Below, piece by piece: positions 3,547-40,016 of a DNA stretch of 64,000 nucleotides. The first letter of the stretch is position 1, and each line of letters opens with the position of its first letter. The DNA is taken from NCBI GenBank assembly GCA_973895155.1, contig OZ316896.1, positions 7,759,278 to 7,823,277 of the forward strand, read 5' to 3'. The stretch is from Marsupella aquatica. Taxonomy: Eukaryota > Plantae > Marchantiophyta. Position numbers and translations under genes: made by a program. The notes below the pieces were generated by a model, which was not told where the DNA came from, ran no database searches, and was given only the letters and a program-made list of their open reading frames with translations.

Positions 3547-3691
3547 ACTCTTGGGGCCTATTTTTGGAAGAAAAAAGGAAGTATTGCATTACTAGAAGAG
3601 GCTAACTTGCTTTACTAGACAATTGGTCTAGGGACACCTAGGTGGTGGACGCCTATTCATTGCGAGAGAGTAAACAAGTTGATATATAGCA

Positions 3692-5926: not shown

Positions 5927-5939
5927 TTGCATCCCGTTA

Positions 5940-8900
5940 ATGAGGGTGAGTAGGCAGGATGCCAATGTGAGTGACTCACCAAACATAAGATTTTCCTCGT
6001 CTTCGTTTGTAGCTATAGGGAGAGATAGAGAGGTTTCATATATGCAAGTTAGAGAGGCATCAAGAAAATTGAAAAAGAGAATTGAAAGAAGTAAGGCTAT
6101 GTTAGTTAGTCAAGGTGTTATGGATTTAAGTGATAACATAGAGGGTGTGCTAGATGAACAAGGTTGTTGTCCCACTTTGCAGCAAGTTATAGTAGATTTG
6201 AATGATGGAAAGGGTGAGATAAAAGTAGGCCCATTGCTATATCAGCATATAGAAGAGTTGGTTGAGGTGAACACAAAGTACAAGACAATAGATAAGAAGG
6301 TTAGACCAGCAGCCACACCTCTACCAGCTGATGCAAGAGATATTTTAAGAAGTGCTAGCAAGGAGCCTAGTTTGAGAGATAAAAGAAAAATTGGACATAC
6401 ATTCACAGAAGATACTTTGAACCAATTGAAAATTGGTGATGATGGACTACTTACCATGATCGAGAAGGAGGCATTCAAAAAGATGATCAAAGAGCATGGG
6501 AGGGCATTTTCCTTTTCTATGGAGGAGATAGGATGTGTGGATCCACAGAAGGTAACACCAATGGTTATTTTTACAGTTCCACACATACCATGGGATTTGA
6601 AGCCAATTTCAGTTCCAAGAGCACTAACACCAAAGTTGATAGCATTGTTGAAAGAGAAGTTAGATGCTAAGATACTTGAGAGATCAGATGCACCATACTC
6701 CAATCGATGGTTCACAGTGCAGAAGAAGAATGGGAAGCTACGTTTCATTCAAGACATGCAGCCACCAAACAAAGTCACAATTCGGAATGTTGGAGTTGGA
6801 CCTGTGGTAGACGAGTATGCTGAAGACTTTGTTGGGAGGGCCATCTATTCCATTGGAGACTTGTACTCAGGGTATGATCAATTCCAACTTTCTCAAAGTA
6901 GTAGGGATATCACCACCATGAGAACTCCACTTGGACTTTTGCGTATGTGCACCTTGCCACAAGGTGCTACTAATTCTGTTGCACATATGCAAAATGCTAT
7001 GAACAAGATTTTGGAGTCTTTCATTCCACAGAAAACTAGACCATTCCTTGATGATATGCCAATCAAAGGATGTTTGGAAGAACTCAAGGATGAGACACTT
7101 CGAAAGGATGGGATACGTCAATTTGTTTGGGAACACATGAAGGATGTAGGGGCTATACTAAAGAAGTTGATTGAGGTGGGAGTTACACTCTCAGGAGAAA
7201 AATCAGCATTTGGCTTAAGAGAAGTCAAAGTGGTTGGGCAGATGTGTGGGCCCTATGGAAGAAAGCCAAGTAAGGAGAAGGTGGAAGCAATCAGCCAAAT
7301 GGAGGATTGTCAAACAACTTCAGAGGTACGAAGGTTTCTAGGAGGTTGTATCTTCTACAGAATATGGATACCACATTTTTCACATGTTTCACATCCATTA
7401 TATGGCTTGCTTAAGAAGAATGTAAGATTTATATGGAAAAGTGAACATGTAGAAGCAATGCAGCACTTGAAAGAAGCTTTGTTAAGTCCACCTGTGCTTC
7501 GCCCATTGAAGTATGATGGTGTACATCCAATAGTTCTTACAATAGATGCGAGTCCATATGGAGCAGGATGGGCATTGGGACAAGATGATGATGATGGGCA
7601 TAGAACAGCTGCTCGTTTTGGAGCAAAGATCTTTAACGAAAGACAACAGAAGTATCCGCAGATAAAGAGAGAGCTTTGGGGAGCAAACTAGCACTTAGGC
7701 AAGAGAGAGATTACTTGATAGGAGCTAACATGATTCTAGAAACTGATTGCTTACCCTTACTTGGGATGATTATAAACTGTGATACTCCCGACATTGCTAT
7801 GCTTAGGTGGATAGCTTTTATCCGAATGTTTAATCCAGAACTGAAGCACATAACTGGAAAAGATAATCCAGTGGCTGATATGTTGTCAAGAGCTAGATAT
7901 AAATCAGGCAAGCATAGTATTGAGTGTTCACATGGTGAGATTGAGGGACAAATTAAGGAGTTGTTATTCTATGAAGATCTATATTCAGGAGAGTTGCTAG
8001 TTATAGGACGTTATTTGAGTACATTGGAGAGAGACACTAGATGGAGTGATGAAGAATTCAGCAAGATTCGAAAGAAGGCTTACAAGTTCTTGGTTCGAGA
8101 TGGATACTTATGGAGGCGTCCAAAGGCAAGGAGTCAAGTACCTCTGAGAGTGCTTGATACTGAGGGAGAGAAAGTTCAAGTATTACAAGAGGCACATGAT
8201 CTTGAAGCAGCAGGGCATCGTGGAGTTCAGGCTACATATGAAAAGTTAAGAAGATTCTACTGGTGGGCTGGAATGTACGTGGATGTTCGAGAATATGTTG
8301 GATCTTGTGAGATTTGCCAATACTACTCAAAGATTCAACATAGAGATGGCTTGAACCCTACACATCCTCTATCTTTACATTTTCAATGGGGTATAGATAT
8401 CGTTCATATGCCACCAGGGATTAGAGGTGCAAAATATTTAGTATTAGCTAGAGAAGACTTGTCTTCGTATGTGGAAGGGAGGGCATTATCTTCTAACAAG
8501 ACTGAAGCCGTATGCAGGTTTGTGTTAGAAGATATCATTGCTAGACATGGATGTTTTAGGCGCATGAGAGCTGACCGTGGAGAGTTAGATAGCAAAGAGG
8601 CAAAGGCATTCTTCAAGAAATTTCATATCCGCTTAAAGCTAACTACATCTTACAATCCAGAAGCAAACGGCAAGAGTGAGAGAGGTCATCCACCAATTGT
8701 TAATGCCTTAGTCAAATCATGCAAGGGAAAGGCATCAAGATGGCCAGACTTACTACCTTTAGCTCTATTAGCAGATAGAATGACTTATAGTTCGGTGACA
8801 GGATATGCACCGGTAGAATTAGTGAGTGGGCATCTACCTTTAATGCCATTAGAGGAGAATGTTTTTAGTTGGAGGACAGTTGACTGGGAAGATCAGATAT

Positions 8901-9301
8901 CACATGAAGAGCTACTTGCAAGGAGGATGGAACATTTCCAAACAACTCCAGAAAAGATTGACATTGCAATGGAGAAAGTGAAGCAAGCACGAGAGAAGAA
9001 TAAGGTCAGATTTGATAAGACTCATCGATTGAGACCTATTCAAATCAAAGAAGGAGATTGGGTTCTTATTGCAGAAGGAGGGTTGGAGCAACAACATTTG
9101 ACAAAAGCTAAGTTTATGAGAAGATGGAGAGGGCCATTTGTGGTTGTTACTATTCACCCAAATGCAACATACACAGTTCGAGAGTTAGATGGAGCAATTC
9201 ATCAAGTTCCTTATGCAGGCAAGAGGGTTAAGCTTTTCAAACAACGTTTGAAATTTCATTTACAAGATGTGTATGATTTGAGTGATGTAGAGGACTTTTG
9301 A
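5940..9301 (+). CDS. pol: Pol (RT, RNase H, integrase), frameshifted near 7680
   Basis: RT motifs DLYSGYDQF, LPQGATNS, FLDD; RNase H IDASPYGAG and ETDC..NPVADMLSR; integrase H-H-C-C zinc finger, DIVHM, ADRGE, YNPEANGKSE and GPF module. Confidence 0.93.
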
Positions 9302-9345
9302 AGCTGGGTCATAAGGTTGGTGCAGACCGGAGGCTGCACAGGTTT

Positions 9346-9358
9346 AGTGGGGGTGATA
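9346..9358 (+). other. Polypurine tract
   Basis: AGTGGGGGTGATA directly before the 3' LTR TG at 9359. Confidence 0.75.
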
Positions 9359-9370
9359 TGTCGTGGGGAT

Positions 9371-10035
9371 CCCTGGGCCCCCAGCATTATTAATAATGGG
9401 CTGGATGTGCGAACGGATGAAGGGTGCAAAAAATCTTATTTGAGATTAATTTTTATAATTGGCTTAGAAATATCAAGGGATGGTTTTATTCAAAGAACCT
9501 TTTCTAACTAATATAGGCTTATATAAATGTCACCCAAGTTAATATGCTTCAAGAGGTGATGTAATATGGATGTGACACGCGTCACAATAAGATTGGTCCT
9601 TGTGGTCACCCTTTATTGGAACATGTGTATATGACATATAATTATGCTTGCAACATCTATGATTCAGAGTAGTTTAGGACTTTGGAGCTTTTGAGCCCTG
9701 ACTACCCTGCCATGTGGTTCAAAAATGCCCCAAAGTTGAAGTTTGGGGTTAAAGGGTCACAAACACAAAAATGTATGTACCCAAAACCCTTCTAAAACAC
9801 TCCCATCAGTTTTAGAACCGTTTGCACATGATAAATTTATAACTTTTCAAGGCTTTCATAAATGGTGTAAAATGTGAAATTATAATATCTCAAAGGGGCA
9901 GATTTATTCTCCAAAATTAAGTTTTTAAGAATAACAAGAGAAATTTTTATAGGCTTCCAAAAATAATAAGGGGTACTAGGGAGGGGGGTGTACGCACGTA
10001 TACCTCTTTAGTTTACAAAGGCTGGGGGCCTAGGG
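9371..10035. mobile_element. 665-bp non-autonomous TIR element (MITE) with 8-bp TSD
   Basis: TIRs CCCTGGGCCCCCAGC and GCTGGGGGCCTAGGG (14/15 match). TSD GTGGGGAT at 9363-9370 and 10036-10043. Absent from the 5' LTR. Confidence 0.9.
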
Positions 10036-10176
10036 GTGGGGATTCCTTTTAGAAGGCTAGAATCCATATTGTGTTATTTGAGTTTATGTGAAGAGAGTTT
10101 TACTTAAAAGCTTCATAGTAGTACTATTAGAGCATATATGTTACATTCTATATGTAGTGTGTACATTCTACAATGG

Positions 10177-10423
10177 TACACAGTAGTTCCACCATTTACG
10201 CATAGTAGTTTTACAAACTAGATGCATAGTAATTCCACCAACTACGCATAGTAGTTGCACCAATTATGCATAATAGTTTCACCAACTACGCATAGTAGTT
10301 GCACCAATTACGCATAGTAGTTTCATCAACTACGCATAGTAGTTGCACCAATTACGCATAGTAGTTCCACCAATTACGCGTAATAATTCTACCAACTACG
10401 CACAGTAGTTCCACCAACTATGA
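10177..10423 (+). repeat. 22-bp tandem array in the 3' LTR, about 10-11 units
   Basis: Same unit as 2329-2440 at roughly double the copy number. Confidence 0.85.
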
Positions 10424-10726
10424 ATAGTACTAGCACACTTATAGGTGCTTGATGCTTGCCACTTGGCTTCCATCCAAGGGTCAAGGCATCGATCCATGCC
10501 CTCTTGGAAAACACAAAGGGGCACTATAAATAAAGTGAAGAGGAGCACACTCTCCGCATTCGCATTGTTTGATCTATCGTGTTGGACTCGCAACACTGTA
10601 AGGAACTCTTCCCCTCTTGTGCACATGTCTTGTTTATTATTTACCTCCATGCTTGGGTACTAACTTGATTGTTAGCCTTAGAACTATTTTATGTTTTATG
10701 TTTATTAGTCTTGAGATCAATTTAGT

Positions 10727-11215
10727 GTGCTTGTAATGAATAATATGATAAATGGAGTACCTAGAGTTTATCCCCCACCTGCTGTGCCATTTGTGAATCC
10801 TTTCTTAATTAGAATTCATTGTCTTAGCAAGCATACCATGAGAATGCATCTTCTTTATCATTTTGGGTTTGAGTTAATGGAAACAGTTATGAATAGCGAT
10901 GCACTATTTGTATACCCGATTGTTGTTTATGGAAATGAATGGAATGTAACTATTTTTATTTTATATTAGATGGATTTTAATAGAAAATCCATAAATGTAC
11001 CGGAGTTAGATTTGAATAGGCTTCCTAATAATGTGTCAGATTTTCCTTCATCTATTGACATTAGAGTGGTATGCCGAAAGAAGGTTGATTGTAGAGATGT
11101 TTTAGTTAGAAAGTATGAAGATGAAAGATACAATGTTATGCTTAGGATGCCAGAGCCTATGATTATATCATCTATGGTAAATCTTAAGATCATAGTCTTT
11201 GTTTTCTATAATTGA
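10727..11215 (+). CDS. 3'-LTR copies of the two small LTR ORFs
   Basis: ORFs 10727..10969 and 10970..11215; a few substitutions relative to the 5' LTR, no new stops. Confidence 0.4.
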
Positions 11216-12805
11216 CTTGTCTAATTGTAGGATTCATTGGAAATTGCAATCTATGACTTGACTTGGGAAGTAAGTTATGTGGAAAGAGGATAGGCCGATT
11301 CGAGGCTTAGTGTGAGGAAGCCGCTCATCGTAGAGTGGGACAAAGGCTGTGAGAGATATTTTAGAGGATAACGGTGAGAGAAATTGATCGACAAAGGGGA
11401 TCGCAAGGGTAATGTGAGGTGAGAAAAGACGTATTTTGGAAAGGTTTCTTCCAAGATAGGAAAAACAAGAGCTCGGTGCTTCCCAAGAACTAAAGATTCC
11501 CCCGACAACGTCAAGTGGGGTCTCAACCTAGGGTTTCCTTGTGTTTCGGTGGGACTTAAATCAACAAAATAGCGGATCTCGGGAAAATAGCTGATGGGAA
11601 AAGGTAGGGGTTCCAAGTTGGAAAGTAGGTTAAATATGGTCCACTCTATCCCTGGAAACTTGTGGGAGAACTTGGTTACCTTTGGTTACTTTTTGGGAGC
11701 ATCTCAAAGTTGAGAAGAATTTTGGAAAACATAAGAATTAACCCTCTTTACCTAATTTTAGAAAATCTTTTATAAGGTTTTGTGTAGATATTAGTAAACC
11801 AGGATATATAACTATGTCTAGAAAATCTTTAGATCTACTCAGAAGTCATTTTGGACTCATGTGTGATGTTTGAGGGCGGTCCAAAACGGCCTGGAAATAC
11901 TGTTTTTCCATCAAAAACATCCAAAAAAAATTCTAAGTGTCAACCGCATCGGCAGCGACCATGACTTAAGCACAAGGCTGGGGAGACTCAAGCACGAGGT
12001 CAGGAACACCATAAGGGTCAATACATGAGATGCTTGCTTCAAATTGGGATCAAGAGGCAGCTACGACATTGAATTGAGCTGCTATAGCTTCAGGCATGGG
12101 ATGCTGATCAGAATTGGCTGGCTGCCTCGATGCTGCTGATTGGAATAGAGCTGCTTGTTATGGAGAAATAGGCTGTTGCTGATCAAGAGATGGCTGGCTG
12201 CGGGGTTGTAGAAATATATAGAGGGCATCAAGGAGGCTCTCGATCGGAATATGTTGTCCGTACTTCTCCGGTTACGTCAATATGCAGTGCATCCTAGCCT
12301 TCCTTTCCTACAAGCAACTGAAGATAAGAAGAAATTTGACGGCGTACTTAGAGATGCTCTCAACAAACATGATTGAATCAAGTTATTGGCAGATCTCCAA
12401 TCAGTTAACATGCAAAGTGCTTGTATAGAATGCAAGGTAAGTATCTTAGCTCTAAGTTTTATTGGTTTGAAGGGAAGACTTAAGAATTTTTGCAAAAGAA
12501 CAATTATAGGGTCTTTTAAATTCAATTTTGAGACTTATAAGAACATTAGGGTCTTTCTAACCAAAATTTTAGAATATTCCAAATTTATAGGCGTTGAAAA
12601 ATAAATTTTGTTTCTTACATTTTAGGAGGTCCCAGGCATAAAATTTTCGCAAAGGATGGGGAGGCATCCATATAGTGAGACCCCCGATCTTCAAATGTTC
12701 ACCAAGACTCCTGAGGTGAGTCAAATTTGTCCATTATCTGACAGCTTATTCATATATACTTTCACATTTTAATTGTAATGACAAACGTTTCTATGGGTTG
12801 TGTAG

Positions 12806-13210
12806 GTGAGCATCGTTCTACTTTCCTTGATGGCAACGTCTACAGGTCTCAACATAACTTGCGCAAATCATGTAGTTCTAGTAGACGGGTGGTGGAATCC
12901 ATGTGTGGAAGACCATGCTATGGACCGGGCACACCATATTGGGCAGACAAAACCAGTTACTGTGGTATGGTTTATTGCTAAGGATTCCATTGAGGTGAAG
13001 ATATTGAAGTTATAGATAATTCCCTCGTGCATCGTTTGCAGATGGCTTTAATTTATAATTAACCTGCTAGTTTCTAACTACATTTCATTTGGATTGTGTT
13101 GATTGTGCAAAACAAGAAGCGAAGGATGATTGGTCAGATTATGTACGGCGGTGTGAGAAACCAGGATGTACCACGAGAAGACTTGGCCTACTTATTTGGA
13201 GTAAAGCTAC
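12806..13210 (+). pseudogene. SNF2-family (RAD5/RAD16-like) helicase C-terminal fragment with intron
   Basis: LLSLMATSTGLNITCANHVVLVDGWWNPCVEDHAMDRAHHIGQTKPVTV..DSIEVKILKL matches helicase motifs V and VI. The next exon reads QNKKRRM..EDLAYLF. No N-terminal ATPase half. Confidence 0.85.
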
Positions 13211-13820
13211 ATCATCAGTTATCAGTGTTTTTCATCAGTCGACTTGATATTTGTCGCCACGTCATCTTAGAGAGGCCACCAAGTTGAGGCGCCAAAAAAA
13301 TATGCGAAAAAAAAAATGAACTTTTTTCTCAAAATTTGATGGAGAAAAAAAATGAAATTTATTTCCCACTATGGGTGTCCGTACCGTACGGATACCACAT
13401 CTCGGCGAGGCCCGCCGAGATAGTCCGAGCTGAATTTTGTCAAAAAAAAATTTGGATTTTTTTTTGTTGGAAATTTTTTTTTTTCATTTTTTTTTGTCCT
13501 TACGCCAATCTTGGCGAGGTCAGCTGAGATTGAGACCACATCTCGGTGAGGCCCGCCAAGATAGTATGATGTCCGTACGGTACGGACGCTGAATTTTGTC
13601 AAATGTTTTTTTTGGAATTTTTTTTTTGTTGGAATTTTTTTTAAAAATGATTTAATTTTTTGTTTTGTTTTTTTGTCCTTACACCAATCTCGGCGAGGTT
13701 AGCTGAGATTGAGTCAATCTCAGTTGCCCTAGCTGAGATGCGCAAAAATGCAAAGGCCCTATCTCAACTGCTCAGCTAAGATTTAGAAATTTCAAAGCGA
13801 CAAAAATGATAACTGATGAT
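13211..13820. mobile_element. 610-bp MITE-like element
   Basis: Perfect 14-bp TIR ATCATCAGTTATCA / TGATAACTGATGAT. Internal ATCTCGGCGAGG..CCGAGAT repeats and poly-T runs. TSD unclear. Confidence 0.7.
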
Positions 13821-16027
13821 CCTCGCTACCCCACTTATTTGCAACTGACAGTTCTCATTCAGATTATGATTAGATGTATATAGCTAGGGGTTCACTTGGC
13901 AACTGAGGAGCAAGCTATATATATATATAGCATAAGAAGTATGTAGAGTTACATTATATTACACACTATGATTTTATATATAAAGGACTACACAATCCAT
14001 TTACCTGATCGAGCGTACTTTTGTTTTGTACATTGCTTTGTACATTGCTGCATTTGATTTCCCTCTCTTGGGATTTCATCATTTTCTTCTATAAACTAGC
14101 TAGGGGAAACAAACTCGTGGAATTTCACCTATTAGTTAGGTATCTTCACACATTAATTGAGGTACATAGGGAATTTAGGGGCATATCGACACCTCCATGC
14201 CAAGGGGATTTGGTCCCCTACTTAATAGGGGAAAATAATTCAATAAACAGGTGCGAGTACACTCTGAGGTTAATTGACTAACATAACCTCTATAATCTAT
14301 CTCCTAGTAGTGCATATATCCTCCTTGTGTATGTTATTGATTATGGTTGTTAATATAGTGTGTTGATAATACATAATGCAAAGTGTCTTAGTTAGTTCAA
14401 TTGTAGGTAGTGAAAGCAGAGACAACTCGACTTCAAAAGGGCAAACATTTCAAGAATTTAATTTGGAGAATTTGACAAGTATTTGGATTCTTGGTTGTCA
14501 TAATGGTTTTGAGGTATATGTTAAGCATAGACAACAATTGTAACGACAAGCCCATGAACCATCCAACGCATAAGTATCAACATCAACAGATATGTGGTTC
14601 ACCTCCAGCCACATGAGGCTACATCCATGAGAATACACAAGAGCTTTATTGCACTCTAGGCCGACTGGCTATACCAAGCATCTACAATATATGGGGGCCT
14701 TCCCATCACCTGCCACGTTTGTAGGCCTCAGACCCCCTAAAATATAAGAATTTTTAAAAAAATTTAACCCCTATAAGGTTGGAATATTCCAAAATTTTGG
14801 ATTAAAAAGACCCTAATATTCTTATAAGTCTCAAAATTAAATTTAAAAGACCCTATCAATGTTCTTCTGCAAAAATTCTTAAGTCTTCCCTTAGAACCAA
14901 TAAAATGACCATATCATTCATCGCAGTGATGTGCCACTTTTATGGAAGTGAAACCCTCTAGCTCTCAACTGACATGGCTCTATTACAATGAGCCTGAGTT
15001 CCTGCTCTTCAAGCAAACACTGTTTGGGTAGAGTGTGTCTAGCGTGACTAACCTAACCTAGTCTGCAACTAAGGTGAGCCCTAATTGTGATATAGTTGCA
15101 ACTCTAGACCTAAGAGTAAATCCTAAGAGTATAAAGATTGAAGACATTTTGAGAACATTGAATAATTTCTGAACACAAGTGTGCAAATTTAGCAAATTGG
15201 TGTCAAAGCAAAATATTTGTATGTGGGGGAGATCCAAAAATAGATTTGTCCCTAGTGGAAAGCATTAGAAAGATTCTCAACAAAGCAACGATGAACATTA
15301 AGGAGATAGCAGCCCAATTTTACTACCTCTAAACTTTAGACTAACCCCTTAGCAAGTGAAGGCCATACTAGTTTTGTCTTCAAATACAAAAGTACCGATG
15401 ACTAGATGTCTGGTGTCATTCAATTCTTATTATGCGCGGATTGCGGGCGGACTCCTATCTAGACACAATTGCAGCGTACCATGAGAAAGATCATTTGCTC
15501 ATATGCTAGAAAATTAGAGTTCATAGTAGTAAAGTCTCCCTTTAGTGCGAGGTTTTTCTCCATGACAAGAAATCATAACAGTAAAATAGGTGAGGAAATT
15601 CACACAATATTTGACACCCATAAACAAAAAACGTGTGTCAAAATGTCAAGTTTATTAGTAGTGCCTGGCGCTACTTAAAAATCTGTGCCACAAATTCCAA
15701 AACATCCGGGAACATGTCGTTGACCAAACTAATTCAGAAAGCGCTCCGGGTAACTGGGATGTAACTTAGTCCGACAAAAAAACTGGCTAGTGCATTACAT
15801 GGTGGCAAAAACGTAAAGCAAGGCGACGATACCTATTTTGACTTCAAGCTCCAAAATGTTAAGAGATGCCGCGAGCAGTAAAATGACAAAACAACTGGGA
15901 AGTTGTAAGCTAGAAAGAAAACATCAAGAACCGACACTACACCCTAACTCCTTCCTTGTTCGATGGCAATAGCGTCGGGCGCTACTATCTTGTAAGTCTT
16001 TGAAAAGACTCCAGATTTCCTACAATC

Positions 16028-16620
16028 TCAGGATGTCGATGATTCACACTCATCATCCAGTCCGGCATTGAAGCAATCCTCATCTTGACAAAATTCATCC
16101 TCCCGCTCAGCAAAAAAATGCAGTCCTAGAAGGTGACTCCTCAGCCTGCAATTTGGTATGTTGGAATCAGAAAATCCAACTCGCTCAGTCCACTGTTGAA
16201 TGTCCCTGAAAACCGCCGTCCGTCCAACCCTATAGACATCAGAAGGATTTGGATTGTGAATAGAGAACCGTTCTCTGAAAGACCGGGGAGGAGACAAATG
16301 AGGGGAAGTATTCAATTTTTCTCAAAGGCTTATCACCTTGTTCGAGGCCAGCCATAGTCGATTCCTCTTAGTTGAGGTCTCAGGGTGAGGAGTCTCATTG
16401 ATGGGGACCTCCAAAGCCAGAGAATCATTTGAAGCTTTGCCTTCCAACATCACGGGGCTGGAAGTTCTCTCATACACGACATGCTTTCCTTTCTCCATGG
16501 TCTCTGGATCATTGTCTTCGCGGCGCGCATGGCAAAAGAGCTACTGGAAATTCTTGAACATAGGCGATATATGTCAAACGGAGAGGGTGTAAAATGAATA
16601 GGGTGTCGAAATGCCTACCG
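16028..16620 (-). pseudogene. Degenerate ORF of unknown function within the MULE-like element
   Basis: ORF 16028..16315 plus upstream broken frames; flanked by palindromes at 15970 and 16818. Confidence 0.35.
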
Positions 16621-16899
16621 TTGCAAAGAAATTTGACCCAGTGTAACGAGTACGTATGACAGTCACGGACATTATGGATTTTCATCGTACATAAGTACAT
16701 GTACTACCATTTTTGGAAGCATTACAGTACACTTGACTTCCAAAAAAGATATATGGAAAATAATACCTTGCCCACTTTGTATTTATATAAAGTAACATTT
16801 GTGATGAGTACAATAAGTAGCGCCGAGCGCTACTATTTTGGAGGAGGTAATTTGTTTTAAAATGATGAATATAACTAATCTAATTTAAACTAACCTAAT

Positions 16900-19343
16900 C
16901 TAATCTCCAGATTTTGACTCACTACTCTCCGATCTATCCGTACTCTCTGCTTCATTGTCTATAAATTCATTTTGTGCCATGTCATCGACAAATGGATGAC
17001 GGATAAACTTTCTATCCAAACCATGTCTCAATCGTAAGCCTTTGTTCTCCCAGGTAAGGGTTCTTCTACTCTCTTCTTTGCGAGCGGCATACTCTGCGTA
17101 TGAAGGCAATACAAATGGTTTCTCAAGGGTAGTGAGGACTTTCCTCAAAAAATTTCTTCCCAGATAAAACCTCTCGCAAAGATTCCACTCTGACCTGCGA
17201 GTCAGTTGAAACACTAAGTATTTCTAGAGATTCCAGTAATTCATGTTTCCTAGTAAAAAAGAATATAGAAAGTGAAGTAATGTAAAGGAGCTTACGACAT
17301 TACTCAGAAGAATCTGAATCTTCCGTTTCTCCTTCTGAATTCCCCCCATCCCTTTTCTCTTCTTCTTTATGTACATCAATATTGCCCTCCTCATCAGCTA
17401 CATCAGCTTCTTCTTCTTTGGAATCAAAATTCAGAATAAATTGAAACTTTATCTTTCACTCTTTTCCCCATGTCTTTTCTCAGACCAGCCTCACTCGCTT
17501 CTTTTGGGAGAAGCAAGTTAGTGTATATCCTCTCAGTAATAGAATCAAATTCCTTGCAATTCTCATTGGACGCCTATACATGCATACAAATCTCTAGAAG
17601 AAGAACCGAGGTTAAAATCATTACAAACGCTTTGCACTAAAGCCTCAAAAGTTTGTACACCTCCTATGACAAGTCGTTCGAGAGGCATGATAGATTCAAC
17701 TTGTGTGAGAGCAGTCTACAACATCCCTATCAAAATTCCTTCAATCCAACTCCACATGTGCCAAGTGTGACACCATTGTTTCACAGGTTCATCATTCACA
17801 CCCGGCGGATGGAAAAATTGCTTGCGAAGTTCAGGCGTGCAATGCGCCACAAAAAGAGTAGAACGCACCTTTGGGTCCAAAGTTGAGACAGCAATAAAGA
17901 GACAAGAACGATCCATCATACAAACCACAGACTCTGCTTTCCGTTCCCGCTTGTTTTTCTCTATCAGCGTGTATATTTTTGCACATGTTGACAGGAAATC
18001 TTCAAATTCGGGACTTAGGAGTGGAATGATCTTTGAGGTCTTCACGCTCCATTCTTTCGTGGCCTCCTTCATCATGGTCGCATGACGCTTGGCGACCTCC
18101 TCCTTTGACCACGGCTTCCCTTGAGAGTTAGCAATCGCCATGTCCAGTTTGAACTAGATAGATTATGACTTGATCTTGTTCTCACACAAGATGTACACAA
18201 GGGCCTCCAAAGGCATCATCTTGGTATACCAAGAGCCTTTCCTTGTCTTTGCACAAATTTCCTCAAAGCGTTTGAAGTTTCTGGAGTCAATTATTGCCTT
18301 GTAATAATCAAGGTCATGGGACAGAATCTAACTGATTTTGTCAGCATCAAGGATCCACGACGGTTCTACCATGGCTTGCCCCAATCTATAAACAACCAGA
18401 ATTCATTAGCGCCAGATGCTAACCAAAATCTCACAATTGAAAATTTGTCCATTTAAGCAAATCAAAGAAAATGACCAAACTTACTGATTGACAATGTGCA
18501 TGGCGGCTTCAATCTTGATAAGAGAACCCCGATCTCCCTTGAATATAGTGCATAGCACACGGGGGTGGTACATGACATTTTTGGGGTTCTCTTTTGTGAT
18601 CTGTGACCAGGAATACAAACGATGATTCCCGTCGAACACATATTCTTGTCTTTTAAGACATGAAAATCTGGATCTGCTTCACAGTTCACTTAAAATTTCT
18701 CGTTTTGTACAGTCCAGACAGCATCCCAACTCTCACAAATTTTGGGGGTACAAAATTGGATGACGCCTTCAGAATCAGCGGGTTGCACGTAGAACCGCAT
18801 CCCAATGGAGGAATTGTAACCATAACTATGAAATGAATCTTTCACCTTCTCAATCGAAGCGCTCTCCTTCTGCAGAGTCCGAACAACTTCCATATTGACC
18901 AGGCGACAAAGCGGTATACGCGGAGGGTCCTTTGGCTCTCCTCTAAAATCATTGCCAAATGACATTACATGTTTGGCAATCACATCTCCCATTGATCGCG
19001 ACCCTTCACTCCCGACCATGGCACCTTGTTTCTGCTTTGGGAAAGTATGCGCAAAGTTCCAAAGTGAATGCGATGCAGTCAAGCCAGTAAGGTGTCGAGT
19101 GTAAACGGAACCAACAAATGATGTCTCCGATGTTTCAGAATTACCCGGAGAAATGTTGTCCATCTCTGGATAAAGAGTCTCTGGCCCTAAAATTTGGAAA
19201 GTTCTCAGCCACTCACGAAGGTCTGCAACGTTATCCTGTAATTGGATAGATACATTCCACGTCCCAAACAACCTGCATGGAGACCATTCTTCACCAACAG
19301 AGTGACACGACAACAAATCCCACAGCAAGATCAGATCTGTCAA
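16900..19343 (-). pseudogene. Multi-exon gene encoding a ParB/sulfiredoxin-like (DGNHR) domain protein
   Basis: ORF 18690..19343 (IPLCRLVNMEVVRTLQ..IEKVKDSFHSYGY..FYV) continues past a stop and a frameshift into EYVFDGNHRLYSW, with DGNHR at 18619-18633. GTAAGT..TAG intron at about 18389-18485. Downstream ORFs 17716..18141 and 16900..17214. Confidence 0.6.
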
Positions 19344-19596
19344 ATTGACCTTTTACAGTAGAAAGATCCAAAATAGACCGACAACTGACTTAAATATGTA
19401 CGTTTTATGATGAAAAGTATAAGCTAATCAAGCAATCAAACCAAAGAGAAGGGGACACTTGGCATATAGTACCGACGTGGTTAGTCAAAGATAATGAAGA
19501 ATCTCTAAATTAACATTCCTTTACGTGGTAAAAATGGTCATACAGACATCAAGCTACCGTTAGAAATATCCGTTGGACTATAATAATCAACAATAA

Positions 19597-19922
19597 TAGC
19601 GCCCAACGCTATCATAAACATCACTCCTTATTAACCACAAACTTAGCCATATTTTCTATCGATCTGACCATAAAATACTAGTAATCCATTGAATTTCCAT
19701 AATAGCGCCCGATGCTATTATTGATTGATGTCTAAAAATGGGTTTTGTCCTACAAATGTTCAAATATTTGTGAAACTCTAGTTTTTTTCATTTTCAGCAA
19801 TAACAGCGCCAGGCGCTATCAATGTATAGTAGCAATTGAAGTCACGTTTAGTACAATTCTGATTCAAAATTTCTCGTATCTGACCAATGTTCTGGTTGGG
19901 TTTTTGCTAGTGCTTGGCGCTA
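19597..19922. promoter_or_regulatory. Cluster of four TAGCGC-N3-GCGCTA palindromes in the divergent intergenic region
   Basis: Copies at 19597, 19703, 19804 and 19908, about 100-105 bp apart, between the ParB-like gene (-) and the transposase (+). Confidence 0.7.
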
Positions 19923-20139
19923 CTAATATCCGTTGTGAAAACTTTCATTAAATTAACAAAAAAAATTTGTTTTCAACGGTCATTCAACGCCATTTATCTC
20001 AAATTTATCCGTTGTATCAACGGTAAGTTTATTATATTTTGGAGGTCTGCGTGTGGTTTTCTTTGTTCTTGATGATTTACTTGTGGGAAATAATAAACCC
20101 AAATTGGAAACAACCCTATCATTTTGCCATTCTGTCACA

Positions 20140-22234
20140 ATGTTGCGGGTTATTAGGGTAAAATGTGTTGTAACGGGTGATGTGATTAGCGTTCCTATGA
20201 CTAACGGAGCAGGTCATCAGCATGTTAGTGAAGATTATCTTTGCGGAAGGTTTGTTGTTAGGAGGAAAGACATTGAAAGCTTAGGGACACCTGCCAACGG
20301 GGCAGTGAATTTTTATTACATTTGTGGTCAGAAATGTTGGGAACTGCACGTAGGTGTCGAGTACACGCTTTCCCTCCAAGGAAAAGGAGTAGTTCACGTG
20401 AAACTAGAGACGGAAGATGCACCAAGGGAATTCATCGACCTCACGTCTGATTGGTGATGACTCATTCTCTGGATCTCAATTGCCGATGGATGTTAGGAAC
20501 ATCAAGAGCAAAGAATGTCATTTTGCAAAGCAATCATTTCCAGTGCATCAGTGTAGCACATCAACGAAAGACATTCATCTTGCGGCTAATAGTGGATGTG
20601 ACAAGCTTCTAAAATCTCCTTCTCTTCCTGTTGTTTACAAAAGAAGTGCAGTAGACGCTCTTTTGAAATCATCTAGTCAAAGTGAGCTATTTCGGTTTGT
20701 GCGATCAGAGACTTTCAAGCACAAGCAAGTAGAATTACTTCCAAAAACTTATAACGGCAATGTCATATTTGAGCTTCCGCCTGTCGATGTGTTGGTTCAA
20801 AGGGGAAACGTCTCCTTAACATGGACCGTTCGAAGGATTGCTATCTCTGACTCAAATTCTCCCTACTTCGGCGAATGTCTTGCCGAAGAAGATGTGGGAG
20901 TTTGGTAAAGTCAGTTGTAGCGGATCACTTGAAGCCAAAACAAGCTTGCAAGTTTTATATCAGAACCTTGGGCCCTCAGTCTTAACTAATACGTGGAGGA
21001 CGTGCAAACACTTGAAGGGTAGTTTTTATTAATTTTTAACTAATAATTATAATTATTACCAGTAATAAGGGAACTTTTTAATAGTAAAATAGAAATAACA
21101 AGGGGTAAACAGGAAAAGGACCCGATCATAGGGGGTCCCACTTCTTTTACACGAAGTGAGGGCCCAGGGTATCAAAACCAATGGTAGGAATAATTGTACC
21201 TCTTGGGAAGGGACCCCCAAGTTAGGAGGCCAACATTGTCCAGGAAAGTTGATTGATTCAAGAGGGATTGTTTGTCGTTATTGTCTTCATCTTCTGTTCT
21301 GTTTGGACTCTTGTTCTGCTGGATTTGGTACCCACAACTTGCGTACCCACAAGTTCTGCTGGATTTGGTGACAACGCAACATATGTCACGACTTGCAATC
21401 CATATGGGTGTCCATAACCATCCTTGTCAAAAGTTCTAGTCTAGAATTTTGGAGATAATAGCAGTCGAAGAGATTCGGAAAGAGCACTTGAAGAATCCTT
21501 CTTCCTCGCCCTGTGTTCTTAAAAATGCAATCACTTGATCTTTGAAGGATGCACAGATAAATCTGTCGATGACATCTCAAAGATGGAAGAGATTGAGATT
21601 TGGCAGTCACTTATGCTTGTTTCGACTCTGCAGAAATTCTTTGCCTTGTTTAAGAGTGTCCGGAAAGATTAGGCGGGGCGAGGAGACCTTGAATATCTGG
21701 TTTGAATGCAGAAGAACGTCAGGTTCCCGTTTGTTCAAAGGTATCTACTTCTAGGGCAAGGCTGTAAGGAGGACCGAGCTCATATTTTCAAAATGATGAT
21801 CAAAGGGCATGGATCCGAAGTAGATTTGTTGCGACAGATGAAAAAGGGTGGACCCCTTGAAGGTGCGTGGGTGAGTTTTGATGTCATGAAATGATTGTCT
21901 TAAGAATGAAGTACTTTTAGCGCCCATGTATATATTTATAACTATCAAGCTTTATGTACAATATTTACGTGTGAGCTAAAAGTGAAGGACACTGAATCTC
22001 TTGAGAAAGCCTGGAGATTAATGATCAAGGTCGCTTTAGAATGGGTTAGATGATGTTCAAATTCACAGATTCATGGCTGATAATGCTTAGTCAGGGTGGC
22101 GTGCGGTCAAAAACATTTTCTTTGGAGGCCATCCAAATCTGGAGAAAGAGAGATTGGATGCTTTTCATTTTTACCAATCTTTGTACCGTCATTCCATTGA
22201 AGGAGTGCTGGAAGACAAACATTTTGAGCATTGC
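20140..22234 (+). pseudogene. Mutator-like transposase, N-terminal and catalytic part, decayed
   Basis: YNGNVIFELPP; Cys/His cluster CRYC..C..C..HMGVHNHP; FKM..GHGSEVDLLRQM..GAWVSFDVMK; FMADNA..GWRAV..ERLDAFHF. Many stops and frameshifts. Interrupted by a solo LTR. Confidence 0.65.
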
Positions 22235-22679
22235 TGTGACACGGATAACGTGTCACTTAACCGAACCCAGGTCATAGATTAGGTCTTATACGGACGTTAG
22301 GACCATAGCCATAGCGTAGAATAGCACGTATAGCCGTCTGTTGCCATTATGAATAGATTAGGAGTAGGTTAAGATGACCGAATGATTACGAGTTCAGGAA
22401 GAGGATTATTACGCGTGACCGAGGTACGGTGGTGGCAGCGGAGTAAAAAATCAGTTAGAAGTCACGCTTGGACCGAGGCGCCAACTTCAGCTCATTATCA
22501 ATGACCAAAACGGCCTGGCCTTCTCACGCTCGGGCTCATCTTGGCACCTCCATAAGAGAGGAGCCAATGGCGCTGCGGGCCATTTGCTCATTTCCACCTT
22601 TTTGGAATTTGCGGACGTTGCCATCCACTCACCTTTCTGATCGAATCAAGTCGACCTTTACAAGGAGATTATCGAGGGA

Positions 22680-25600
22680 TGTGATGCCTAGACAGGAATC
22701 ACTCGGCCGGTTAAGTGGGTAAAGCAGGAAGGCACCCTAGGAACACCTTAGTATAGTGACAAAACAAGGAAAATATAAACAATTAGGGGCAACCATGGAA
22801 CCCGGGCAGAGGCCGGAGGTAAGGCTGAGGGTGAAAACCCGATTAGGGTTAGGGCGCGTTAAGCGTCGGCGGCTAGGAAGGATCAACGGGAAGAAGGACC
22901 AGCAAAGGAGAGGGGTAAGGAGCACTTGCAGGAGATGGTGGCTCATTTGCGAGCACGAACTAGGCAGACGACTACGGGAGGCCAACTACTGTCAGCTGCT
23001 TAGGCAAGCACTTGGGGAGAGAATAGATACCGACGATCGACCTAAGGAGGGTATGAGCAACGTCAATCAAGCGGCACATTTCTGGGGATGCCTGTTCGAA
23101 CGGGCAACTGAGTACATCAAGACTTACGAGGACGAGGAGTCAGAAAGGGCAGCTCGAGAATGGCAGGAGCTCGCTCGATTGTGGGAGCTGCAGAAGACGA
23201 CTTTCTTAGGAGGCGAACTCATCAAGGACGAGTTCCTGTGGACGCCTACTTCCAATCAACTCGACGATCTTCTGTTTTGCAAAGACAGCGTCGTCGGCAT
23301 CCGAGAGGCCATCAAGAACTGCAACGACATACACTGGGAATTAAAGGGTAGCACGGAAAGGTGGACCCAGGCAACGGTGCTAGGAGAAACCTCCACGGCA
23401 GCAGAGGTGAAGAGGAAGGGAGCCGTCAACGATGAAGCCACCCCGGCAAAAAGAACGAGGTCGGCGGCACCAAAGAGGCCAGCCGAGCAGCAGAGCAGGA
23501 GGCAGGGAGAAGCCGAAGAGGAGGAGGTCGATCCCATCAAGGCCATTCCAACCAGGGATGACACCTGGAAGGGCTGGGCGGCAACCCTACCGGTGGAGGT
23601 GCAACTACATTTTGCACGGGAGGAGGATGCATGCTTTACGGCCATGCAGACCAAGAAGTACCAAGGCTTCATGGCCGGATCCGGCTTGGAGGCCTTTGTA
23701 AGATTACCATGGCTGAAGCCGGAGGTACCGGAGTCAGACCTATTAGAATTCGTGGGGTCATGGGAACCCGAGACCAATTGCACGAGGATATATGGGAGGG
23801 ATTTCTATCTTACTCCCAAGGTAATTGCCGAAGTGTTTGGCTTGCCGATAGGCAATAAGACCAAAGTTGATACCAGGAAGACCTTGCCTGACAAGGAGTT
23901 CTGGTCGTTCCCCGGGCCATCAACGAAGAATGGCTTCTTCCGGAACACCTGCACCAACCCGCACATAGGAGAGATGATCGACTTCTTGCGGGTGACCATG
24001 CATTGTAACTTGCCGAGGGCAGAGATCGGCAAGGCACAGGTCTATCTGGCAGAAAGGCCAGACCCAAGCCGGGACTACAACGGGTACCTCCTCAACCAAT
24101 TGAAGAAGATCTTAAAGGAGGAGCAGCAGGTAATCGGCATGGGGAGCGTGTCGCGGCTTGGCTATCACATGCCGCTGTTGTGCCGGTATGCCAGAAGTCA
24201 GACTTTTGCCCCGGTACTTCCCCTGCAGGTAAGGGCACCCGAGGAAGCTCCAACGCCGAGGCCGTTGGCTGAGAAGCCTCAACCACCTGTTAATCCTACG
24301 ATCGAGCAGGCGTTTAGGCCCAGGAAGGAGGACTTGCCGATGCAGCAACCAGGCATGCAGAGTCTGCTGAAACTACTGGAGAAAGAAAAGAAATCGGCAT
24401 CGGCAACAACAACGGCAACGGCAACAATGCAGGACACTACTACAGAGGTAGGCCTACACCGGCTCACAAGAGAAAACCCCTTTGCTGGAAACAAGGAGAG
24501 AATCAGGCCGAAATCCAAGCCAGGTGTTCGAATGTACGTGGGAACCTCAAGCTCCGAATCTGAGGCAGAATTGCCTGAAGCTCCTACCGACGAAGAGGAG
24601 AGGGAGAAGCCGGACGTCCAAGAGGTAGAGGAGGCAGTGGAGGACTGCAGCCATGATAATTCCGGCTATGGGTCGGACCATCACGTTCCAGGAGTAAGGA
24701 CCTGTGGCCGGTTTGTCCCCACACTTCCAAGGGTAGTGCGAGGGGACCCCAACCAGCAGAGTAGCCCTGAGTCTCCCCCACCAGATGTTGCTCCCCCGAG
24801 CTTCGACGGCATAAAACAGACGGTGCAGGAATTTCAGGAGCGAATCAAGCAGGAGGAAGAGGCCGCCCTGGCTAAGGAAAAGGATTTACCAGGAGGAGAT
24901 TGGCCGGAGGACATCAGGCGGCTAGCCGAAAAAGGAAGCAAACCTCTAGCCATGATTGAAGAGATCCGCAGGACGGCGTGGGAGCAGAGGCCACGATGGG
25001 CGATGCCGATCACTTCTACTTACTCCACCTACGCTAAGAATAGAGCCATGGAGTATGGTGAGATGTGTGGGGAACTTGCGCTCGGCATCTTTGGAGAGGA
25101 GTTGGAGATAGGACCCTTTTTCCATAGGGAGCAGTTGGAGAAGCACCAATTAGAAGAAGCGGTGGCTTTAGAGAGAAGCAAGAAGGAAGAGGTCATTCGG
25201 CGGCTTAGGAGGATGGAAGCCGAGATTGAAGATCTAAGGGTGGCCAAGAAAGCCCAAGATGAACTGCGGATTAAACGACATGAGCTGAACATCATGCAGG
25301 GGCAGTTGGACACCGCGCAGGCTGATAATCAGAATATCAAGGATAAACTGACTCAGACGCAGGAAGAGTTGGCCGACACGATCAAAGAGAGGGAGAAGTG
25401 GAAGCAAGAGCTGAAGAATACAGAGGAGGCCCACATAACAGCCAACAGCCGGGCCATGGCGGAGACCCAAAGAAAGGAATGGGCGTTGAAAGGGGAGCTC
25501 GAGAAAATCCGCGGAGCCCTTGAGCAGAAGGAGGTCGAGTTAGGGAAATCCTATCAAGGGATTATGGCGCTGCAACAGGAGCTTGCGTCCCTGACGGCCA

Positions 25601-27315
25601 GCTTCAAGGCCGACCTAAGGGAGAAGGACGAGATGCTCGAACAGACTTACGCCAAGATGAACCAGATGGAGTCTGTCATCATTGCAGAGCTCGACAAGGA
25701 GCTAAGAGCAACCCAGGAGGAGAGGGCTACCTTGAAGAAGGAATTGGAGGAAGCCCACAGGGAGCAGGAGGAGGCCAAAAACGAGCTGGAGGGGGCACGT
25801 AAGGACCTGGATGAAACCCAAGAGGAGTTGGAGGAAATCACGAGGAAGATGGAGAACCTACAGCGGCAGGCCGACAACCAAACAGAGTGGCTGAAGAAAC
25901 AAGCCGCAGTATTTAAATGCTTAGCTGCAGCAGGTCCATCTCCCGTTGGGACAAACCAGTTACCAGGGGTGGTAATTGCCGAAGGACAAGCCACGCCACC
26001 TGCACCAGTGCCGGAAGTAAGTGGGAAGGGGAAGGGACCAGCTGCCGAGCCACCAACAAAGAAGAAGCGGAAACCTTCAGGGTCAAGGAGTAATACGACT
26101 TCACAGGCCGTGGTGATCAAGGAGGTAGACCCAGCACCGACCCCAGACAGGGTCACGGCTAAGGATCCAACTACCCTAGGGGAAGGGGAGGCCGAAGCCG
26201 AGGGAGTGACTGAGGCCGAAGCCGTGGGTATTGCCGAGGCCGGTGTCGAGACTGAAGCCGAAGGTGGACCCAGTCAGGCCGATGGAGAGTTGACTCAGTC
26301 AAGGGCAGGTAATCTGTCAGAGAATGAACCTACGGCAGTGGCTGAGGAGGAAGCGTTGGGGGCGTCCATTAAGGATCCACCACCGGTGTCGTGACGGTGC
26401 AAGGGCACCGTTCCTTTTAGGGAGGGCGGACGTGGAGGGAGGAGGCGTGAGTGGGCAGGGCGGGCGCGGATCTCCACGTTTAGGATTAGGATCAGAACCA
26501 GGAGCGGCCCTGACACTTAGCTTAGTGGGATTGCGGTCCCACTGGTAGGAGCAACACTTGTGCTCCTGCCTTGCTGTACATAGGTAGATTCGGGCAAGTA
26601 GATTACTGTTAAGTAGATTAGGCTTACGATGCAAAGAATGGCGGATCCACTACCAGGATAAGTACCTGGGCAGCGGGGAGCTCAGGGCCTCTTCTTTAGC
26701 AAGTTTTTAGTTTGCACCAGCCGGGCTGGGATCAAGTAGTACGAGAAGCTCTCGGTTAGTCATACAGTGACCCTTGTGTATATTCATGTTTCCTCATGCC
26801 TAAGAGCTGAATAGAGTTGGCCTCACGGCTTAGTTCGCAGAACTTGTGTATGAGATGTACTGTTTGTATGGCAAGTGCATGGTATGACTCAGTCAGAATG
26901 AGTCATTTTGCTATTTGTGTGTCGCATTAACTTGTGTGAAGAGTGCCCACATCAACAGAAGGAAGGAAAGTAAGCAGGGGAGTGAGAGTTGGATGTGTCG
27001 AGCTGAGAGAGGTCTTAGCGGCTTAACCAAGCCTATTGGGGATCATTCCGGCGGCGGAATCCAAACATACCTAACAAGACGGAGGGGAAGACAGGGGAAG
27101 ACAGGGGAAGGCCTATATTAGGCCGGCTACGTATCTCATGACCCGATGAAGGATCTGTCCAATATATGTGTGTAAAATGTTAATAGTAGTAGTAGAAGGT
27201 TAGCAGCGTCCCATGCCGCTAAGCCGCGGAAACGGCCTCGCCAAGCACGAAACCTGCGGGAATCGGCTTGAGCTGGGGGGTTTCTTGGGTTTAGGGAGCC
27301 ATGGGACGCACCACA
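22680..27315 (+). repeat. 5' LTR (4636 bp)
   Basis: TGTGATGCC...GCACCACA, followed by the PBS; near-identical to 31706-36365. Confidence 0.95.
22756..26394 (+). CDS. LTR-encoded large protein (plant-transposon-type globular domain plus long coiled coil), 5' copy
   Basis: 1212-codon uninterrupted ORF entirely inside the LTR. Homology to the solo-LTR ORF suggests the start is ATG 23053 (MSNVN). E/K/Q heptad-rich region at about 25120-25910. Confidence 0.85.
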   Translation: MTKQGKYKQLGATMEPGQRPEVRLRVKTRLGLGRVKRRRLGRINGKKDQQRRGVRSTCRRWWLICEHELGRRLREANYCQLLRQALGERIDTDDRPKEGMSNVNQAAHFWGCLFERATEYIKTYEDEESERAAREWQELARLWELQKTTFLGGELIKDEFLWTPTSNQLDDLLFCKDSVVGIREAIKNCNDIHWELKGSTERWTQATVLGETSTAAEVKRKGAVNDEATPAKRTRSAAPKRPAEQQSRRQGEAEEEEVDPIKAIPTRDDTWKGWAATLPVEVQLHFAREEDACFTAMQTKKYQGFMAGSGLEAFVRLPWLKPEVPESDLLEFVGSWEPETNCTRIYGRDFYLTPKVIAEVFGLPIGNKTKVDTRKTLPDKEFWSFPGPSTKNGFFRNTCTNPHIGEMIDFLRVTMHCNLPRAEIGKAQVYLAERPDPSRDYNGYLLNQLKKILKEEQQVIGMGSVSRLGYHMPLLCRYARSQTFAPVLPLQVRAPEEAPTPRPLAEKPQPPVNPTIEQAFRPRKEDLPMQQPGMQSLLKLLEKEKKSASATTTATATMQDTTTEVGLHRLTRENPFAGNKERIRPKSKPGVRMYVGTSSSESEAELPEAPTDEEEREKPDVQEVEEAVEDCSHDNSGYGSDHHVPGVRTCGRFVPTLPRVVRGDPNQQSSPESPPPDVAPPSFDGIKQTVQEFQERIKQEEEAALAKEKDLPGGDWPEDIRRLAEKGSKPLAMIEEIRRTAWEQRPRWAMPITSTYSTYAKNRAMEYGEMCGELALGIFGEELEIGPFFHREQLEKHQLEEAVALERSKKEEVIRRLRRMEAEIEDLRVAKKAQDELRIKRHELNIMQGQLDTAQADNQNIKDKLTQTQEELADTIKEREKWKQELKNTEEAHITANSRAMAETQRKEWALKGELEKIRGALEQKEVELGKSYQGIMALQQELASLTASFKADLREKDEMLEQTYAKMNQMESVIIAELDKELRATQEERATLKKELEEAHREQEEAKNELEGARKDLDETQEELEEITRKMENLQRQADNQTEWLKKQAAVFKCLAAAGPSPVGTNQLPGVVIAEGQATPPAPVPEVSGKGKGPAAEPPTKKKRKPSGSRSNTTSQAVVIKEVDPAPTPDRVTAKDPTTLGEGEAEAEGVTEAEAVGIAEAGVETEAEGGPSQADGELTQSRAGNLSENEPTAVAEEEALGASIKDPPPVS

Positions 27316-27319
27316 TTTT

Positions 27320-27338
27320 TGGCGCTAGATGGAGGGGG
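27320..27338 (+). other. Primer binding site
   Basis: TGGCGCTAGATGGAGGGGG just after the LTR end; resembles the PBS of Tat-type plant elements. Confidence 0.8.
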
Positions 27339-27384
27339 CATTTCTTAAGCCGTGAGATATGAAGTTAGAACGGAAGCGTAGGTA

Positions 27385-31692: not shown

Positions 31693-31705
31693 AAGTGGGG
31701 AGCTA
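31693..31705 (+). other. Polypurine tract
   Basis: AAGTGGGGAGCTA before the TG at 31706. Confidence 0.75.
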
Positions 31706-39960: not shown

Positions 39961-40016
39961 GTGAGTATCACCCTTTTCAATTCCTGAATAGACTTCTACA
40001 CTAGCGTCTAGCGCTA

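Follow-up and report, generated by a model that had tools for sequence, protein, structure and literature searches.

Does a plant transposon carry a protein that recognises the element's own copies? The question is raised by a 64,000-nt stretch of the genome of the liverwort Marsupella aquatica (assembly GCA_973895155.1, contig OZ316896.1, positions 7,759,278–7,823,277 of the forward strand; hereafter the window), for which a first-pass annotation made from the sequence alone had described a minus-strand gene with a ParB/sulfiredoxin (Srx)-like motif, head to head with a transposase of the Mutator-like element (MULE) type and accompanied by copies of a palindrome resembling bacterial parS. Our analysis adds to this description that the gene is predicted to fuse a ParB domain to a methyltransferase-like one, the latter being deleted in the window copy, and that its relatives are accompanied by palindrome arrays that differ from family to family. 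The explanation that we favour, tentatively, is that the ParB-methylase protein binds the palindromes of its own family and protects the element against silencing by the host, thus acting as a self-recognition module.

A decayed gene for a predicted ParB-methyltransferase fusion

The DGNHR codons of the minus-strand gene were found at the annotated position (18633–18619), within the longer sequence YVFDGNHRLYSW (18642–18607), and the IPLCRL..VVR..KVKDSF..YGY..FYV block reported upstream of them is likewise present, in a different reading frame. Together they form an exon with a ParB/Srx fold, as taken from intact relatives (18485–19200, minus strand, 5′ end approximate; motifs IPLCRL..VR, GY and DGNHR), which contains one in-frame stop at about 18690 and one frameshift, where one base is missing near 18642 and two contigs of run X4 carry the extra base. 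A 99-nt GT..AG intron follows (18386–18484, minus strand), with homologous exons ending and beginning at the same place, and one palindrome (18407–18421) lies within it. The next exon (17612–18385, minus strand) encodes the first part of an all-helical middle domain, has three stops and is truncated by a deletion, which is occupied by a 46-bp filler (17566–17611) with contig departures at both edges. Beyond the filler we read by hand the remnant end of a methyltransferase-like exon (17290–17565, minus strand, lower end approximate), with ENCKEF.. followed by an acidic stretch, and the last exon (16900–17223, minus strand) encodes an LP.YA..FVDD.A tail, a weak match (E 0.28) that trails the methyltransferase domain in homologues from Riccia sorocarpa.

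The match of the helical exon to its homologues ends at about 17612, and contigs diverge from the window at 17565 (runs X1, X3 and X4) and at 17612/17615 (runs X2, X3 and X4). Read by hand, the loose contig end at 17612/17615 carries the helical domain onward, and the one at 17565 runs in frame from CGRFILG into the I-E-N-C-K-E of the window, comparable to the CGRCCIVAE that follows motif I in the homologue P0088. As the loose contig ends continue both domains, the family has a methylase domain that the window copy lost by internal deletion; judged from these joints, the deletion took what remained of the helical domain, together with the linker and almost all of the methyltransferase-like domain. 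Contigs of the four runs cover 30 of 30 bins of the region 14900–22400, mostly at 80–95% identity, hence the fusion-gene element is a multi-copy family. The window copy, already recognised as decayed, bears stops, a frameshift and the internal deletion: this copy of the transposon is dead and its methylase domain is missing.

Homologues and predicted folds

A HMMER-wide search with the stop-read-through frame of the window against 1.84 billion representatives gave 83 matches, and seven of the ten that were looked up are R. sorocarpa proteins. A second search, with a full-length Riccia protein, returned 27 matches, all from R. sorocarpa; word-index protein searches with window fragments gave no match. 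The homologues share a layout of a disordered N-terminus, the DGNHR domain, a long helical domain, a linker, a domain matching PF01555 weakly and a short tail. Within DGNHR, which represents the box II GxxR phosphate-binding motif, the N is the same in all of 29 homologues, and the other four residues (D, G, H and R) are each conserved in at least 90% of them.

Structure models were made of two intact relatives, P0048 and P0114, and not of the window copy. P0048 is a single-exon homologue, 43–48% identical to the ParB domain of the window, and its model (predicted local distance difference test score, pLDDT, 83.9) had ParB/Srx proteins as all of its top eight VIA matches (Z 6.8–4.5), the next, unrelated row having a Z of 3.6. 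These matches were KorB (Z 6.8, root-mean-square deviation (rmsd) 2.7, 92 aligned residues), PadC (6.7), Srx (5.8) and pNOB8 ParB (5.6), followed by SerK (5.2), Atu1540 (5.1), human Srx (4.6) and SbnI (4.5). Foldseek also ranked KorB, ParB and Srx first, with weak E values of about 0.1, and residues 100–267 of the P0114 model (1104 aa, pLDDT 70.9) resemble ParB/Srx proteins as well (KorB, Z 7.5). The middling Z values are consistent among themselves and fit the conserved GxxR motif, and the N-terminal domain is predicted from these models to have the ParB/Srx core fold, in accordance with the first-pass annotation. Sequence comparison was less informative: Pfam gave no ParB match above threshold for any homologue (only DndB, E 0.07, and DUF1015, E 0.14), searches of PDB sequences were blank or gave trivial matches, and neither viral nor prokaryotic contigs yielded a confirmed relative of the ParB domain. 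A ParA-like partner was absent from the open reading frames (ORFs) of the window and from the recurrent ORF clusters of the 50 related loci described below.

The C-terminal domain is predicted to have the fold of a beta-class N4/N6 DNA methyltransferase. Residues 790–1068 of the P0114 model matched M.MboIIA (Z 15.1, rmsd 3.3, 196 aligned residues; Foldseek E 1e-6), M1.HpyAVI (Z 14.9), CcrM (14.4), M.PvuII (13.9) and N4CMT (13.2), the methylase region of a homologue matched PF01555 (E 5e-5), and motif IV precedes motif I, the order of the beta class. In 19 of 117 stored proteins D[LIM]P[ST]G replaces the catalytic motif, and the methylase exons of 16 loci have D/N-[VI]-P, lacking the aromatic residue, where the frame is intact. 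Motif I, which binds S-adenosylmethionine (SAM), reads DFAGGWG in several Riccia proteins and is degenerate in others; LGR..I.A.E/D, with the acidic residue after the next strand, is kept in the loci, and the PF01555 and PHROG matches cover the motif I part. Between the two folds, the middle domain of about 400 aa is all-helical in the P0114 model.

Residues 95–262 of P0114 were also placed in the Atlas by language model, which serves as a lead only; their neighbours were cnidarian clusters without a name, fungal clusters in which 31% and 92% of the members carry DUF3723, and clusters with ParB_N (11%). DUF3723 and 'Starship' are mentioned together in the literature, in which we found no pairing of DUF3723 with ParB. 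It may be that DUF3723 has a ParB fold that has gone unrecognised and is carried as cargo by giant transposons of fungi.

Palindromes in the window

The palindrome had been reported as ten copies of TAGCGC-N3-GCGCTA. All ten positions are within two mismatches of this pattern and only two of them (775 and 16818) are exact, with eight occurrences at one mismatch or fewer versus 0.03 expected from shuffles; a 7-1-7 consensus, TAGCGCC-N-GGCGCTA, describes the copies better. Among the ten copies, 14 of the 15 deviations from this refined consensus are C>T or G>A. The accompanying statement that nested elements lack the palindrome did not strictly hold, as an eleventh two-mismatch match (three mismatches to the refined consensus) was found at 47656 inside a neighbouring CACTA element.

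Four palindromes (19597, 19703, 19804 and 19908; 19597–19922) lie in the divergent intergenic region between the fusion gene and the transposase, spaced 106, 101 and 104 bp apart, which bears out the described spacing of about 100 bp. A further three (15659, 15970 and 16818; 15659–16832) are downstream of the fusion gene. The non-coding location claimed for the palindromes was borne out, with all ten outside mapped exons; for the nine in the main copy (9/9 outside the working exon model of this analysis) the corresponding p value of 1e-5 is indicative only, since our own exon model underlies it. The spacers between the four promoter palindromes show little or no similarity to each other (p 0.57, 0.045 and 0.32), with the palindrome kept, and no array was found there.

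Family-specific palindrome arrays in related loci

A metagenome scan for relatives identified 80 loci, 50 of which remained after removal of duplicates. Methylase exons were located 3′ of the ParB exon in 14 of the 18 loci having at least 3.5 kb of downstream sequence, and 10 of the 19 loci with at least 5.5 kb of upstream sequence have transposase parts there, on the opposite strand. None of the 50 loci contained an array of the window palindrome, with a single two-mismatch match in 417 kb; this palindrome is not a universal site, being private to its own family. Each family with an array has its own palindrome consensus: GAGGTGCC-N6-GGCACCTC in L008 (17 copies), TTCGGCGCCGAA in L005 (6 copies), GCCGTTAACGGC in L032 (7 copies), CAACTTT-N8-AAAGTTG in the L018 group and CATATG-N8-CATATG in L030. 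Several of these motifs have a common GGCGCC/TCGGCGCCGA-like core with differing arms, and motif types track the clades of the ParB tree. The proposed tie between palindrome and gene thus stands as family-specific arrays accompanying the gene in relatives, and not for the particular palindrome of the window.

For 25 of the 50 loci a 2.2-kb window upstream of the ParB exon could be scored for arrays, and distant windows more than 6 kb away served for comparison. A score of -8 or lower was reached by 11/25 upstream windows, versus 1/29 distant windows and 0/50 shuffles (Fisher p 5e-4); the corresponding upstream, distant and shuffle counts were 13, 3 and 0 at -7, and 9, 1 and 0 at -10. Counted by family, 8/15 had an array by their best member and 6/15 by their median member. 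Two strong palindromes of the pooled set, GGGAAG-N7 and AGTCAA-N9, were discarded because they form part of an insertion that recurs with the same long flanking sequence.

The arrays are internal and densest in the divergent intergenic region, and in L008, L030 and L061 they lie between two divergent genes and not at an end. Such a location would also suit a fusion protein that binds the palindromes but, instead of countering host silencing, acts like KorB on the divergent promoter that the two genes share, so that expression of the transposase is limited or timed, the more so as KorB tops the structural matches and the catalytic motif of the methylase is altered. We nevertheless regard this as doubtful, since KorB and PadC are tied by Z score so that KorB is not singled out, sites are also found in introns and downstream of the gene, and an entire methylase fold with its SAM-binding strands has been maintained across distant lineages.

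Some arrays are tandem repeats, with a 138-bp repeat included in that of L008 and 51-bp units in those of L018 and L029. This, and the absence of arrays from about half of the families, would fit passive arrays, either leftovers of tandem duplication or hairpin-prone DNA, beside an accessory gene with an unrelated role. The dissimilar spacers of the window promoter, between which the palindrome was kept, and the recurrence of the same location relative to the gene with differing sequences make this explanation very unlikely.

Eight of the loci (L029, L018, L023, L043, L047, L052, L063 and L069) also contain a conserved gene on the opposite strand (MEDY..MFTH.MD.FK), 4.5–10 kb downstream of the ParB exon, which had no Pfam match in the three loci scanned; in L029 a transposase fragment lies beyond it.

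The transposase and its element

The fusion gene stands head to head with a decayed transposase, which confirms the layout described in the first-pass annotation. Its 5′ part (20140–22234, plus strand) contains, by eye, a Cys/His zinc-finger region, SFDVMK (first D), FMADNA (second D) and DAFH (D-x-x-H), and is interrupted by a high-copy short insertion (20934–21170), recognised from a joint in run X2 that leaves out 236 bases, together with a large peak in depth. Nested long terminal repeat (LTR) retrotransposons with the target duplication ATTGC (22235–39779) split the transposase, the exon of which continues on the plus strand from 39780 to about 39960, before an intron with the palindrome at 40002 (39780–40030) that is later interrupted by other elements. 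As the LTR nest has a target duplication and the transposase resumes at 39780, the 40002 palindrome and the transposase belong together. The palindrome at 775 is outside the main copy and adjoins a separate, oppositely oriented 3′ transposase fragment (775–1952, minus strand), just downstream of which it lies and which comprises a Cys-rich region and a SWIM motif, PCKHLY, in an exon near 1106. The fragment itself (820–1952) points away from the main copy, and could be a second copy or the 3′ end of the main copy displaced by inversion; the E-motif exon needed to link it to the main transposase via an inversion was not found in the window.

The motif order, read by eye, is zinc finger, D, D, D-x-x-H, N-x-x-E and SWIM-like PCKH, and includes C/DxxH, which we take to be a signature of MULE transposases. 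Pfam gave no MULE or SWIM match on the decayed transposase frames, Atlas placement of the transposase N-terminus gave nothing usable, and a search for terminal inverted repeats (TIRs) with an 8–11-bp target duplication did not find the ends of the element: nested elements have cost it its right side, and no inverted pair was seen to flank it. Since Pfam is blind to the decayed frames and no ends were found, MULE membership is likely and unproven; from its sequence motifs, the transposon of the window is likely to be of the Mutator type.

The palindromes in the transposase intron and beside the lone transposase fragment raise the alternative that they are sites for the N-terminal zinc finger of the transposase, used in synapsis or self-activation, with the ParB-methylase acting elsewhere or unspecifically. 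The neighbouring CACTA element has arrays of its own, of TCCGAT-N9-ATCGGA at both ends (scores -13.9 and -19.7), and for AtMu1 the available part of one report describes a transposase that binds the TIRs of its own element and activates the cognate copies (10.64898/2026.08.24.746577). The transposase sites known from that part of the report are terminal (10.64898/2026.08.24.746577), however, whereas the palindromes here are internal. In four loci of one family (L018, L024, L063 and L068) arrays are retained next to the ParB gene where 6.7–10.5 kb of upstream sequence gave no transposase match, and a ParB gene with arrays is also found in elements of another transposase superfamily, as far as the accessible text describes it (10.1101/2025.02.11.637652). 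We therefore consider binding by the transposase improbable as the explanation of the palindromes.

A proposed self-recognition module

The twofold site adjoins a ParB-fold gene, which suggests that the fusion protein is the reader of the sites. In the self-recognition module that we favour, the protein would bind the twofold site as a dimer, via its helical or methylase-like domain, and the ParB domain would use a nucleotide, cytidine triphosphate (CTP) or adenosine triphosphate (ATP), to load at the sites or to spread from them. The methylase-like domain, with SAM-binding strands kept and D-[LIM]-P-[TS]-G for DPPY, would more probably cover or flip bases than methylate them efficiently; alternatively, this step may consist of a non-canonical activity producing N4-methylcytosine (4mC) or N6-methyladenine (6mA). 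The outcome would be a transcribable divergent promoter for the transposase, and site and protein would drift together to give a private code for each family, as with VANC and VANDAL. A further variant, in which a nucleotide-gated sliding clamp loads at the family-private parS-like palindrome, slides along the element and, by way of a non-canonical active site, writes 4mC or 6mA that blocks host silencing by 5-methylcytosine (5mC), seems unlikely to us.

Several observations weigh against a self-recognition module. At the protein level, the Z scores of the ParB domain are all below 8, the catalytic (D/N/S)PP(Y/F/W) motif occurs in none of the 117 stored proteins (many of which are fragments without the methylase domain), and the helical domain, folded here as part of the full-length P0114 model, had no helix-turn-helix protein among its matches. 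With respect to the arrays, 7 of the 15 families have none at the threshold of -8, which was picked after the scores had been seen, one of the counted upstream windows, that of L043, contains an unrelated AT-rich minisatellite, and the agreement between motif types and ParB clades is explained by linkage alone. Arrays are also not unique to the ParB module, because the ends of the neighbouring CACTA element score as high. In the window, the sites occupy the region common to both genes, plus transposase sequence or its flank (40002 and 775), and the C>T/G>A decay of the palindromes resembles that of methylated DNA. Finally, a transposase on its own can suffice for binding and activating its element, as described for AtMu1 in the accessible part of its report (10.64898/2026.08.24.746577).

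Related systems in algae, plants and phages

The closest known system is Sola1-1_Ec32 of Ectocarpus, which encodes a ParB-like domain and an N4/N6 methyltransferase in one protein of 1104 aa on the strand opposite the transposase, as here (PMC12477816, from the portion available). Its authors propose that the accessory protein binds and modifies its own element, and cite green and red algal cases (PMC12477816, same portion). Compared by description, that element belongs to a brown alga and has a Sola transposase, whereas ours belongs to a land plant and has a Mutator-like one; palindromes are not mentioned in the available text (PMC12477816), whereas the plant family has palindrome arrays and an altered catalytic motif. 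The accessory gene PAG3 of Bostrychia Plavaka is ParB-like and, similar to the plant family, is located beside inverted-repeat arrays that were proposed as binding sites, but it is fused to a putative 2-oxoglutarate (2OG)-oxygenase, with the methylase in a separate gene (PAG2) and an EnSpm/Plavaka host element, in contrast to the ParB-methylase fusion of the plant family (10.1101/2025.02.11.637652, as its accessible sections state). Those sections contain no test of whether the sites are specific to each family (10.1101/2025.02.11.637652). The self-targeting design of a ParB-methylase has thus already been proposed for algal transposons, and the family described here is a land-plant, Mutator-like and catalytically altered variant of it.

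Like the plant family, the VANC/VANDAL MULEs of Arabidopsis combine a MULE accessory gene with family-specific motifs in introns and intergenic DNA that have multiplied by tandem repeats (PMC5735166, in the part consulted). The VANC motifs are 8–9-bp non-palindromic words with an experimentally shown function, whereas ours are palindromes with a predicted one, and that part of the paper describes no ParB or methylase domain in VANC (PMC5735166), whereas the plant protein carries both folds. Fusions of a ParB-CTPase with N6_N4_Mtase in phages and prophages have the same folds in the same order and the GxxR box II, according to the available text (10.1101/2025.10.10.680097), and the viral structure matches of the plant fusion include ParB-methylase fusion proteins. 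The plant gene differs from the phage fusions in being spliced, in its extra helical domain of about 400 aa and in lacking DPPY; phage ParB-methylase fusions are the likely source of the plant gene. The same text states that the nucleotide choice of ParB-fold proteins cannot be predicted by sequence or co-folding, and that Srx is the common ParB-fold protein of eukaryotes (10.1101/2025.10.10.680097).

In liverworts, MpDN4MT1 of Marchantia is a beta-class amino-methyltransferase that shows such a mark to be possible in land plants; as far as the accessible part of the report goes, it is a host gene with a TSPPY motif and demonstrated activity and without mention of ParB (10.1101/2021.02.12.428880), whereas the plant fusion is transposon cargo. 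The accessible text of Iyer et al. 2016 (PMC4738411) does not describe the plant ParB-methylase family. Our literature search found no description of this land-plant family, with Iyer et al. 2011 and bioRxiv supplements, which may bear on this, outside its reach.

Other features of the window

A possible small third gene of two exons (16030–16700, minus strand) is a candidate from open frames read by eye, with no Pfam match for the one frame scanned and no match among related loci or proteins. Positions 12457–14905 form a Pack-MULE-like element with inverted arms of about 227 bp that are 81% alike and with short internal inverted repeats, in which no target duplication was seen; it carries a spliced Helicase_C fragment (PF00271, E 4e-8). 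Besides the insertion at 20934–21170, a second short, very high-copy insertion is located at 14985–15126, both being marked by depth peaks and loose contig ends.

The CACTA element (about 40215–51990) has Transposase_21, DUF4218 and DUF4216, and a SET-domain ORF (44573–45481; PF00856, E 3e-5). It appears to lie inside a long interspersed nuclear element (LINE; zf-RVT 52118–53209), which is itself inside the transposase intron. Two Gypsy-type elements were also recognised: an LTR retrotransposon at 2187–11507, with a 4-bp target duplication (ACGT) and LTRs differing in the count of a 21–23-bp tandem unit, and an element with 4.6-kb direct repeats (22679–27315 and 31705–36365) that are 98.9% alike, each with a 1200-aa ORF containing a long coiled coil.

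Implications for transposons of land plants

To our knowledge, VANDAL/VANC is the only system in which an accessory protein of a transposon has been well proven to recognise members of its own family and to release them from silencing. The plant family extends the design of ParB cargo, proposed in 2025 for algae, to land plants, and its approximately ten protein-site pairs with different palindromes would allow a direct test of the idea by binding assays with cognate versus swapped partners. If the ParB domain is indeed a nucleoside triphosphate (NTP)-gated clamp, it would represent such a clamp on eukaryotic chromatin, and an active methylase would give plants a DNA mark encoded by the element. 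Should the protein both slide as a clamp and write such a mark, the families would provide plant chromatin with a natural library of sites, each paired with a writer and programmable.

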